From assembly GCA_010093605.1 (NCBI GenBank), contig MU004185.1:1075334-1139333 (forward strand): DNA of 64,000 nucleotides. Reading direction: 5' to 3'. This document shows positions 28,243 through 64,000 of the stretch, piece by piece (positions within the stretch are counted from its first letter, which is position 1; the number at the start of each line of letters is the position of its first letter). The notes under the pieces are model-generated. The model saw only the letters and a list, made by a program, of their open reading frames with translations, was not told where the DNA came from and did no database searches. Made by a program: the position numbers and the translations under genes. The stretch is from Lophium mytilinum. Its lineage: Eukaryota.

Positions 28243-28338
28243 TCAAATGATGATCTTTTCCAATACATACAATATTTCTGGTACCTCTTGATTTAGTGGG
28301 CCTGCGGGTTCGCGATGATCGCAACGGACTTCTGATAA
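28243..28338 (+). ncRNA. Box C/D snoRNA (snR48-like LSU rRNA guide) inside an intron of a non-coding host transcript
   Basis: C box ATGATGA at 28247-28253 and D box CTGA at 28332-28335. The guide TTTCTGGTACCTCT (28275-28288) is complementary, with one G-U, to the conserved LSU sequence AGAGGUGCCAGAAA. Flanked by a GTATGT donor (28203) and GCTAAC...TAG (28383-28402). Confidence 0.65.
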
Positions 28339-47228: not shown

Positions 47229-47704
47229 GTATATGTACGGGTCAGAAAACCTTCACCGCCCCCATTGCTGCCAAGCAGGGCTGAGTGCGTGGTAACTTCA
47301 AATCCCGCGCGTCCTCTCTTTTGTCGTATTCCTAACGACATCCGCTATTGCGGATTATGAAACAACCCTACTGCCTTAGGGGGCCCCTTGGGCGCCGCAG
47401 ACGTTGTGTATACTCAAAGGGCATTTCCGAACTTTTCTCTAACCTCCAGTTGCAACGCGTGCTGATGACACGCGCTTACTAGGCATTCCTCGTTGAAGAG
47501 CAATAATTGCAATGCTCTATCCCCAGCACGACAGAGTCTAACAAGATTACCCAGACCTTTCGGTCAAGGTGATGAACTCGTTGGCTCTGTCAGTGTAACG
47601 CGCGTGCGGCCCACTAGCGAGGACGTTCTGATCAATCTTGGCGTGCGCCGAGCGTCGAGAATGTCATGGGATGACAAGGTCGGCGGACGCGTGCCGTGTG
47701 AGGA
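47229..47704 (+). repeat. Copy 1 of a tandemly duplicated structured non-coding element
   Basis: Block A (47229-47326) and block B (47610-47704) match 47950-48045 and 48184-48275; the middles are unrelated. Confidence 0.85.
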
Positions 47705-61931: not shown

Positions 61932-62828
61932 ATGCCCTCAATAGGCCCCCAGATACCTCCTCACCTGCTCGCCAAGCGGAAGCGCGACTCCGAAGACGAC
62001 GAATCTCCCAAACCCTCACCAAACCGCTCGAGCAGCCCCGACAGCAGCGACAAGCGACGCAAAGTCCTGGGACCCGCACTACCACCAGCTCCTTTAGATG
62101 AACGACCGCCAGGGAATCCATCGGCCTCAGATTCAGACGACAGTAGCAGCGACGACGATGACTTTGGTCCCGCGCCGCCTCCAGCCAACGGCGCAAATGT
62201 ATGCAGCTCCAGCACTCTCAGCCTTTGGAGTGGCTCCCACTAATTATCTACGTAGACATCAAGCTATGAACCCTCTGAATCTAAATCAGCCTTCGACACC
62301 GACCCCGCATATGCGCCCGCCGCACCCTCCTCCAAACCCCGCCGCGACGAATGGATGATGGTGCCCCCCAAAGCCGACGACCTCGCCGCGCGCATGGATC
62401 CGAGTAAGCAGCGCGCACGCAAATTCAACAGCGGTAAAGGGGCACGCGCGCCCGGAGCTGCAGACGGCGACAACGCTATCTGGACAGAGACGCCGGAGCA
62501 GAAGCGCAAGCGGCTCGCAGATGAAGTTATGGGCGTTGCGCCGGCAGGGAAGGCGAATGTGTCGGCGCGGCAGCAGGCTAGGGATCGAGAGGCGGAGGAG
62601 ACGGCGAGGAGGGTGAGGGAGCACGATGAGCGGCATCGGGGGAAAAGTCTGTTTGAGCGGCATCAGGCTAGTACCACTAAGGAGAAGGAGGATGATCCGA
62701 GTAAGAGGGCGTTTGATAGGGAAAAAGATGTCGCGGCGGGAGTAAGGCTAGGGACGAAGGAGAAGAAGGAGATGCTGAGCAAGGCGGCAGATTTTGGATC
62801 GAGGTTCGAGAGGGGCAGTTTTCTGTAG
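61932..62828 (+). CDS. GPALPP-motif protein (DUF3752), 1 intron
   Basis: MPSIGPQIPPHL, VLGPALPP, DDDFGPAPPP, RDEWMMVPP, IWTETPEQKRKRL, EDDPSKRAFDREKD and FGSRFERGSFL*. Confidence 0.9.
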
Positions 62829-63557
62829 TGGCTTGTGAAAGTGGGAGGAGTGTCTTAAGGGAACTTGGTGATGCTTGGCACGCTGCACACGGCACCTATC
62901 GTAAAACTAGCCCTAGAATCGAACTCTGAACATGTATATGAAGTTCGCACTGAGCCTTACTATACACTGTATGCATGTGAAAAATTTGCAGTATGGCCTC
63001 ATTCAATAGATGCATTTTTCGAATACTCGGTGGTTCACCGCAGGAACTACACGTGGAAACCCTCAGCTTTAAAATATCATGGAATCTACAAGTTGCTAGT
63101 GGCTATCTCAGTTGAATTGAAAACATGCCATGAGTAAAGACGATCAACGCCAAAGCGATTTAAAATGTTGGTAGCGATAGGTACTATACGTACGAGTGGA
63201 GTTGCGGAGCCCACTCCAGCACGAAATAAATTGGATTAAAGAAAGATTCTCCCCCCGACTCGATTCTGAGTTACTAGAATTGAGGAGTGACCTCTCCTGA
63301 ACAGCATGATGGCTCGTTATGTGGTTGCAAACGACGAATACCAAGCCATCCTTTGAAGTGTTGTTTCAGTGGGGCCGATTGTCCACCCTCTGGACCTATC
63401 AATTGGCCGAGACGCTTTGACACACACACCCATGGTACCCTTGTAATTTCACTCACTCCCGAAGGTCGGCTGACTGTTCTCTAGGGTTGGTTTTCGCTCT
63501 AGTTTGTCATGGGCTATATACCAACTATTTTTGCCAACTCTTCATCAATCACCAACA

Positions 63558-63688
63558 GGCGTGGTGGCGGAGTGGTTATCGCGCAAGCCTAGAAAGCTTG
63601 TTCCTTCGGGAGCGCAGGAAAGCGATTTGATTCCTAGCTTCAATACCATCAACTAACAGTGTTATAGGTTCGAGTCCTGCCCACGTCG
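63558..63688 (+). tRNA. tRNA-Ser(AGA) with a 50-nt insert in the T-stem (63618-63667)
   Basis: Acceptor GGCGTGG/CCACGTC plus discriminator G; D-arm/A-box TGGCGGAGTGG; anticodon arm CAAGC-CTAGAAA-GCTTG; long variable arm TTCCTTCGGGAG; T-arm GCAG|G-TTCGAGT-CCTGC; T6 terminator at 63696-63701. Confidence 0.88.
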
Positions 63689-64000
63689 AAATTATCTTTT
63701 TGATTTTCCACATATCTTTTTGCTCCCACGTTGCTCCGGACGGCCAGGACATCAGCAATACGTTTGAACAGTGACTGATAAGCGTGTGCATTCTTTTTGC
63801 CCTTGTGCAATGTGATAGCCGGGGTAATGTGACAACTTTTGCTCGGCTAGCAGCATATGCGCCTATCATCAGTGAATGACATCTACGTGACATCCGGGCA
63901 GGCGAACACGGCATGTCGATAATGTGATGTGATCTTTATGCAGGAAGATGACGGAAGTAACGATGTTCAACCTATAAATCAAGTTCTATGTTACCACAAG

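Follow-up and report, generated by a model that had tools for sequence, protein, structure and literature searches.

A probable spliceosomal-type intron in the T stem of a tRNA-Ser(AGA) gene of Lophium mytilinum, with counterparts in related tRNA-Ser genes

In textbook accounts the introns of tRNA genes and those of the mRNA type belong to strictly separate systems, and here we describe a gene in which the two appear to meet. A stretch of 64,000 nucleotides (nt) from Lophium mytilinum (GenBank assembly GCA_010093605.1, contig MU004185.1, forward-strand positions 1,075,334 to 1,139,333; the whole stretch is called the window below) carries near its end a tRNA-Ser(AGA) gene whose T stem is interrupted by a 50-nt insert. 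A sequence-only reading of the window had proposed that this insert is a spliceosomal intron, of the GA-AG kind or decayed from GT-AG, and our analysis, which found four inserts at the same site of other tRNA-Ser(AGA) genes and two inserts elsewhere in tRNA-Ser genes, supports that proposal as to kind. We suggest, with a rough probability of 0.7, that a spliceosomal-type intron here splits the nuclear tRNA-Ser(AGA) gene of a filamentous ascomycete between positions 52 and 53, and that it would work in the manner set out further below. Taken by itself, the assignment of the insert to the spliceosomal (mRNA) type, as one of several such introns in tRNA-Ser genes of fungi, is very probably right, and that the window's own copy, with its GA donor, is still usefully spliced is rather probable. 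What carries this reading is the insert's own sequence signals, the position and signals kept in six other inserts, the lack of a motif of the type read by the tRNA splicing endonuclease (SEN), and a contig of a near-identical organism in which the exons are exactly joined.

The host gene is preserved in all its parts. The sequence-only reading had called it a tRNA-Ser(AGA) gene with A box, B box and terminator, and all of these are present where it had placed them: the Rfam tRNA model matches 63558-63688 (+) with 41.3 bits against a gathering score of 29, and pattern matches locate the boxes and the T runs. Once the insert had been cut out by script, ARAGORN read the remainder as a tRNA-Ser(aga) of 81 nt whose T stem, GCAGG/CCTGC, is perfect, just as had been predicted for the excised gene. 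The features of a class II tRNA-Ser (cloverleaf, long variable arm, Ser anticodon and discriminator G) were seen by ARAGORN after excision and by Rfam, and the acceptor, D, anticodon and long variable arms are all intact. With default settings ARAGORN called no tRNA gene in the whole window, and with the -i option it returned the parse i(38,41), a 41-nt intron at position 38 that needs a mismatched anticodon stem and a mismatched T stem; we rejected this parse because the 52/53 reading gives perfect stems. In its A box, B box and downstream T5 runs the gene has the predicted make-up of a type 2 gene of RNA polymerase III (Pol III), where TRGCNNAGTGG is the A-box consensus of such promoters. 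Despite the interruption the B box is complete, since its first G, in place of G52, is supplied by the 3'-terminal base of the insert, and the spacing from A box to B box is 102 nt, as against 52 nt without the insert.

The insert lies at a CAG/G site (the slash marks the exon end), as had been read, and its boundary is indeed ambiguous, because AGG stands at both sides: four equivalent registers (63616-63665, 63617-63666, 63618-63667 and 63619-63668) give an identical product. We use 63618-63667, the GA-AG register, in which exon 1 comprises tRNA positions 1-52 and the insert reads GAAAGC...AACTAAC...TATAG. The branch site and YAG acceptor at normal spacing that had been claimed for it were both found, and so was a donor one base away from GTAAGC, the hexamer that starts 4 of the 26 candidate mRNA introns of the window. 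These 26 were chosen by eye from 174 candidates that restore long open frames, which include a predicted 57-nt mRNA intron at 62199-62255, and in this hand-picked set the median length is 56 nt and the range 45-83 nt, so the length of 50 nt is like that of an mRNA intron, as proposed. Short introns of the form GT...CTRAY...YAG are a feature of the window and, with a match elsewhere in it to a small nucleolar RNA (snoRNA) family of Aspergillus fumigatus, suggest a filamentous ascomycete as its source. The longest T run in the insert is no more than three; T runs of four or more occur in 2/26 candidate mRNA introns, against 13% of random 50-mers, and avoidance of T runs is therefore uninformative as a sign of passage through Pol III. 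No further copy of the insert longer than 11 nt exists in the 64-kilobase (kb) window, and no terminal inverted repeats were seen on reading the insert sequence; multiple near-identical copies, and such repeats with a target-site duplication, would mark an introner-like element or MITE. The likeness between insert and exons is not above that of shuffled sequences (P = 0.16 to 1.0 in 10 tests), and an origin by tandem duplication of an AGGT-containing T-arm segment was rejected for this reason.

Table 1. Features of the interrupted tRNA-Ser(AGA) gene of the window, and related or contrasting tRNA-Ser loci found elsewhere
Feature	Position or locus	Strand	Remarks
tRNA-Ser(AGA) exon 1	63558-63617	+	Acceptor 5' strand, D arm, anticodon arm, long variable arm and first 4 T-stem nt; Rfam, ARAGORN, RNAalifold
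A box TGGCGGAGTGG	63565-63575	+	Exact match to TRGCNNAGTGG
Anticodon AGA	63591-63593	+	ARAGORN
Insert, probable spliceosomal-type intron (GA-AG register)	63618-63667	+	50 nt; 5' strand of T stem, between tRNA positions 52 and 53
Candidate donor GAAAGC, after exon CAG	63618-63623	+	Fungal donor matched at +1, +3, +4 and +5; A for T at +2
B-box-like stretch GATTTGATTCC in insert	63624-63634	+	8/10 specified B-box positions; significance unproven
Branch-site motif AACTAAC	63651-63657	+	Fits CTRAY; branch A 63656, 11 nt from insert 3' end
Acceptor TAG	63665-63667	+	Fits YAG
B box GGTTCGAGTCC	63667-63677	+	Exact consensus match; complete in the gene as it stands
tRNA exon 2	63668-63688	+	Last T-stem base, T loop, T-stem 3' strand, acceptor 3' strand, discriminator G
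T5 runs, candidate Pol III terminators	63697-63701; 63717-63721; third at 63794-63798	+
tRNA-Ser(AGA)	L010, L013		Insert at the window's CAG/G site
tRNA-Ser(AGA)	L008, about 474-294	-	53-nt T-stem insert at the window's site and 48-nt D-loop insert
tRNA-Ser(AGA), one sequence on three contigs	L011, L023, L027		53-nt GT-AG T-stem insert and 10-nt canonical 37/38 intron
tRNA-Ser(GCU), one gene	L009, L022		55-nt insert GTAAGT...GGCTAAT...TGTAG between positions 26 and 27
tRNA-Ser(GGA) with anticodon-loop intron	L002, L003, L004, L015, L018, L019, L024, L028, L029, L036, L037

Strong support comes from comparison with other tRNA-Ser genes. Metagenomic sequences were scanned with a pattern consisting of a Ser-type D loop, GCRG, a gap of 30-60 nt, and a T loop with the 3' T-stem strand, a pattern that contains no splice signals. 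It returned 32 loci, of which eight have an insert outside the anticodon loop; the other 24 comprise seven in which the D-loop motif happens to lie beside a normal tRNA, three loci without a tRNA, five single tRNA-like genes extended by a long insertion within or close to the anticodon loop, and nine loci of archaeal type, all one tRNA-Ser(GGA) with a 64-nt anticodon-loop intron. The eight loci represent five distinct tRNA-Ser genes with six distinct inserts, four of them at the CAG/G site of the window (Table 1). The same pattern applied to 185,579 prokaryote genomes gave five loci and no T-arm insert, namely three chance juxtapositions and two archaeal tRNA-Ser(GGA) genes with an anticodon-loop intron. 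The tRNA-Ser(GGA) with the 64-nt intron is near-identical in the nine metagenome contigs and the two archaeal genomes, one of which is labelled Aenigmatarchaeota.

All six distinct metagenomic inserts are 48-55 nt long and start with GT followed by G at +5 (donors GTAAGT, GTGAGT, GTGAGT, GTGGGT, GTCTGT and GTAAGT), and in all six the branch motif is CTAAC or CTAAT, its A lying 9-12 nt from the end, which is YAG; with the window insert counted, five of the seven distinct inserts end in TAG and two in CAG. The sequence-only reading had named as refuting it an insert unique to this copy, or relatives whose branch site and AG are not conserved, and the outcome was the opposite, since branch site and YAG are kept in 6/6 related inserts. 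It had also proposed a comparison of donors between copies with and without the insert, which yielded GT throughout the related inserts as well as insert-free relatives (run X4, described below, and locus L030, an uninterrupted homologue of the L009 gene). After excision 9/9 genes were called tRNA-Ser by ARAGORN, and over the 81 mature positions the identity to the window gene is 77 for L010, 77 for L013, 76 for L008, 64 for L027 and 59 for L009. The T-stem inserts have drifted much further, with only 27-31/50 positions identical to the window insert, and 41/52 between L010 and L013. RNAalifold recovered the cloverleaf from the four unspliced genes, with compensatory changes in 8/25 pairs, and paired GCAGG with CCUGC across the insert in all four. 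Pairs of T runs stand at equivalent places in L008, L010 and L013.

Two of these genes are interrupted twice. In L008 the D-loop insert (GTAAGT...AACTAAC...CACAG) separates positions 13 and 14 and thereby interrupts the A box; the end of this insert and the exon together rebuild a partial A-box-like string. The gene found at L011, L023 and L027 has such an insert as well as a canonical tRNA intron, and its precursor would therefore need two splicing systems. A string resembling the B box and T loop lies in the 5' part of the insert, where the B box would normally follow GCAG, both in the window and in L013, whose insert starts with GTG followed by an exact GGTTCGAAT (insert positions 4-12). 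An excision survey of 471 candidate removals across the window and L001-L032 produced a credible tRNA only from the window gene, L009/L022, L010 and L013, within the limits that it is blind to doubly interrupted genes such as L008 and L011 and that its rows for L006 and L026 are doubtful. Locus L006 holds a class II-like tRNA with a Ser/Leu-type D arm and a good acceptor and T arm, and its middle part, with GCTAAT...TGCTAG, fits no parse. Degenerate 3'-exon copies, all followed by a T run resembling that of a trailer, were seen 60-200 nt downstream in L013 (minus strand, about 88-60), L008 (about 226-190) and L010 (about 222-200); in the L013 copy the last 6 nt of exon 1 are joined straight to exon 2, an insert-free fragment. 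Together, the metagenomic genes support the view that environmental fungi carry such predicted introns, with canonical GT-AG signals, at three tRNA positions (52/53, 13/14 and 26/27).

The recurrence of the signals also bears on chance. Among 127,899 50-mers of the window (both strands), CT[AG]A[CT] with its A 9-12 nt from the end occurs in 1.05%, and the same motif combined with a YAG end in 0.0375%, against 7/7 distinct inserts when the window insert is included. A random insertion with a 3-bp AGG duplication, left by repair or by a small mobile element and resembling an intron by accident, would account for the AGG direct repeat at both flanks and for relatives with insert-free forms. Against it stand the rarity of the combined signals, the full GT-AG signals of same-site inserts in other fungi, and the lack of terminal inverted repeats and of any other copy in the window, and we regard it as highly improbable.

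The insert might instead be a tRNA intron of a non-canonical kind, for which SEN makes the cuts and tRNA ligase seals the exons, as happens in Cyanidioschyzon merolae and nucleomorphs; introns in the D and T arms of eukaryotic tRNA genes do exist and their excision has been confirmed (excerpt of PMC4090602). Introns of this type lie at position 37/38 or have a bulge-helix-bulge at their junctions, and the window insert lies at 52/53 and has no such motif. In a strict test no bulge-helix-bulge was found in any of the seven inserts in any equivalent register, the central helix reaching at most 3/4 pairs and both flanking helices never forming together; this test does not recognise the canonical 10-nt intron of L027 either and so has no sensitivity to eukaryotic sites of the ruler type. 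Recognition by ruler lies beyond its reach, but a ruler needs the mature domain, which the insert disrupts. RNAalifold predicted no pair inside the insert in the four unspliced genes, and single-sequence folds were no better than those of shuffled sequences (z = -0.70 and -1.05). What is conserved instead is GT, a branch motif at a fixed distance, and YAG. Because the features kept while the inserts drift are those that the spliceosome reads, removal by SEN is very unlikely. The spliceosome, we infer, would be what removes these inserts, with the U6 small nuclear RNA (snRNA) of Schizosaccharomyces pombe as precedent.

Four public sequencing runs carry matching sequence (X1-X4), and all were compared with 63300-64000. 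X1 and X2 (organism A) both contain the insert, at depths of 167 and 179, on contigs that measure 9.5 and 11.4 kb and span the gene without a break; the insert is no assembly artefact, being carried by both runs, either of which is possibly a source of the window itself. No second identical copy of the gene is evident in organism A, since the sole other match is a different tRNA-Ser on a 6326-nt contig of X1/X2. That contig resembles 63565-63609 with 8 mismatches in 45 nt and has a different acceptor; after the variable-arm position the letters of this paralogous tRNA-Ser are not those of a T arm and, with the last aligned G, could be read as a GTACGG donor. The paralogue may be a second interrupted tRNA-Ser gene of organism A.

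Run X3 (organism B) is identical to the window over 337 compared bases. Its contig record 5 (157 nt, with no other letters) joins 63615 to 63666, with three letters that fit either side, which is the GA-AG register, and extends to 63788, 100 nt beyond the tRNA end and through two T5 runs. If X3 is RNA, this contig represents a precursor that was spliced and read through; a DNA contig would instead be a precise insert-free allele, for which recombination with a copy of spliced RNA would be the simplest origin and a very recent gain of the insert the other. Coverage is absent from X3 at 63300-63581 and 63789-63820, and the contig begins 24 nt into the tRNA and ends 6 nt short of the third T5 run. 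An RNA that begins at the gene and passes two terminators would give such a pattern, but gaps and contig ends are no proof, and we give it no weight. The joined form also speaks against a tRNA that retains the insert as a giant extra arm, with the UAGG at the insert end serving as the 5' T-stem strand. Such a molecule would agree with the Rfam alignment, which puts the extra bases in the variable region, the only place the model allows; its T stem would contain an A-C mismatch and a G-U pair, while the unused GCAGG strand is perfect and invariant in 4/4 genes. We consider a retained insert extremely improbable.

Several points weigh against a working spliceosomal intron in the window gene. Introns of the U2 type start with GT (or GC), with a fungal consensus GTRNGT; all six homologous inserts start so and the window insert does not, and its membership of the U2 type therefore rests on descent and on its other signals. 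T at +2 is nearly invariant, and with GA at its donor the window copy may be a freshly disabled intron. Transcripts not made by RNA polymerase II (Pol II) are usually poor substrates of the spliceosome. None of the matching runs is on record as RNA, and that X3 is RNA is a guess, so that its joined contig is possibly an insert-free DNA allele. In X4, an air metagenome, record 7 (119 nt) has 42 nt of the same 5' flank and exon 1 with three mismatches and then runs directly into the T loop; a close relative thus has the gene uninterrupted, and the insert is dispensable in the lineage. The comparative examples are uncultured contigs with 300 nt of flank each and are fungal by exon identity alone, and the scan covers Ser-type D loops, which places other isotypes and overall frequency outside its reach.

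One alternative is a dead intron in a young pseudogene: the insert would descend from a spliceosomal-type intron that the T-to-A change at donor +2 has made unspliceable, the gene would now be silent, other tRNA-Ser(AGA) genes would supply the tRNA, and the joins in X3 and X4 would be insert-free DNA. The GA donor of the window insert against GT in 6/6 homologous inserts, the insert-free orthologue in X4 and the lack of any run recorded as RNA all fit this account. However, exons, branch site and acceptor are all still perfect, which would make any inactivation very recent; the contigs of organism A show no further gene that shares this exon 1; and if X3 is DNA, a precise loss would most simply have come about through recombination with a spliced-RNA copy. 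The context AG/GAA is, moreover, that of GA-AG introns known to be spliced (excerpt of PMC7072748). We hold inactivation to be unlikely, while giving it real weight.

If the spliceosomal-type intron is functional, its path can be outlined. The gene would be transcribed, most likely by Pol III, given intact A and B boxes and an insert that has no T run longer than three. The 5' end of U1 could then pair with CAG/GAAAGC at 7/9 positions, with a mismatch at the normally invariant +2. Branch-point factors and U2 would bind AACUAAC, and the intron would be released as a lariat ending in UAG. Joining of the exons would restore the GCAGG/CCUGC T stem, and ordinary processing of the 5' and 3' ends would follow. 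We lean, by little more than even odds, towards the wider proposition that in some filamentous fungi maturation of tRNA-Ser needs the spliceosome, that precursors of this essential tRNA contain one or two introns of the mRNA type (D loop, 26/27 or T stem), that for one gene the tRNA endonuclease is required in addition to the spliceosome, and that in the present gene a GA-AG intron is spliced from a transcript that passes two T5 terminators.

The related known kind is that of mRNA-type introns in structural RNA genes, to which a tRNA host adds. The U6 snRNA gene of S. pombe is a Pol III gene, and U6 introns of Schizosaccharomyces reportedly, by the title of a cited paper, hold a B-box match, in which they would resemble the window insert with its B-box-like stretch. 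Spliceosomal introns in the nuclear ribosomal DNA (rDNA) of lichen-forming ascomycetes likewise lie in genes not normally transcribed by Pol II, but there the product is ribosomal RNA (rRNA) made by RNA polymerase I. Fungal snRNA introns (U6 of S. pombe; U6, U2, U1 and U5 of Rhodotorula hasegawae) are likewise GT-AG introns with a branch site in a short, highly structured RNA gene whose internal promoter follows a tRNA-like logic. Unlike the snRNAs, tRNA has a dedicated intron system of its own, and the inserts described here occur at three tRNA positions and can coexist with a SEN-type intron. The snRNA introns have been explained by reverse splicing beside the catalytic centre, a proximity that tRNA does not have. 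In S. pombe it is the spliceosome that takes out the U6 intron (excerpt of PMC5855946).

The canonical 37/38 intron, which in fungi is handled by SEN and the Trl1 ligase, has the same class of host gene, and position and signals differ here. In C. merolae and in the nucleomorphs of cryptophytes and chlorarachniophytes D and T arms are likewise interrupted, sometimes several times per gene (excerpt of PMC4090602). The introns of Guillardia theta measure 3-24 nt and those of C. merolae depend on a bulge-helix-bulge and the tRNA endonuclease, whereas the inserts here are 48-55 nt long and carry GT, branch site and YAG. As to the unusual donor, GA-AG introns, though rare, are spliced both in Eurytemora affinis and in Oikopleura dioica, typically in the context AG/GAA, and human FGFR genes use one efficiently (excerpt of PMC7072748). 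In these animal introns GA follows exon AG and precedes A, as in CAG/GAAAGC, but they lie in Pol II pre-mRNAs.

In the excerpt of a 2014 review, D- and T-arm insertions in eukaryotic tRNA genes are presumed pseudogenes, with the algal bulge-helix-bulge cases excepted (PMC4090602), and a 2025 paper assigns introns of the spliceosomal kind to mRNAs and to further transcripts of Pol II, with the types of nuclear intron termed 'completely unrelated' (PMC12530127). A full-text literature search, with most subscription journals outside its coverage, returned no description of spliceosomal introns in tRNA genes.

Elsewhere in the window, 47492-47594 (-) is an isolated 103-nt fragment that matches positions 1502-1604 of the eukaryotic small-subunit rRNA model with 78.3 bits and lies outside any rDNA unit, and 28243-28337 (+) is a box C/D snoRNA of the Rfam family Afu_264 (an Aspergillus fumigatus snoRNA; 50.2 bits).

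If the inserts are spliced, tRNA precursors would be among the substrates of the spliceosome; spliceosomal introns would then have, in tRNA genes, hosts of a fourth kind, and two intron systems regarded as unrelated would cross. Standard tRNA finders would miss or mis-parse such genes, as ARAGORN did here with its default and -i settings, and from this failure it follows that fungal tRNA inventories may lack essential genes or label them pseudogenes. The CAG/GT site in the conserved T stem offers a clean system for studying how introns are gained and lost, one that is datable because close relatives have insert-free orthologues. Finally, splicing of the insert would allow the question whether transcripts of Pol III can undergo splicing to be put to a direct test.

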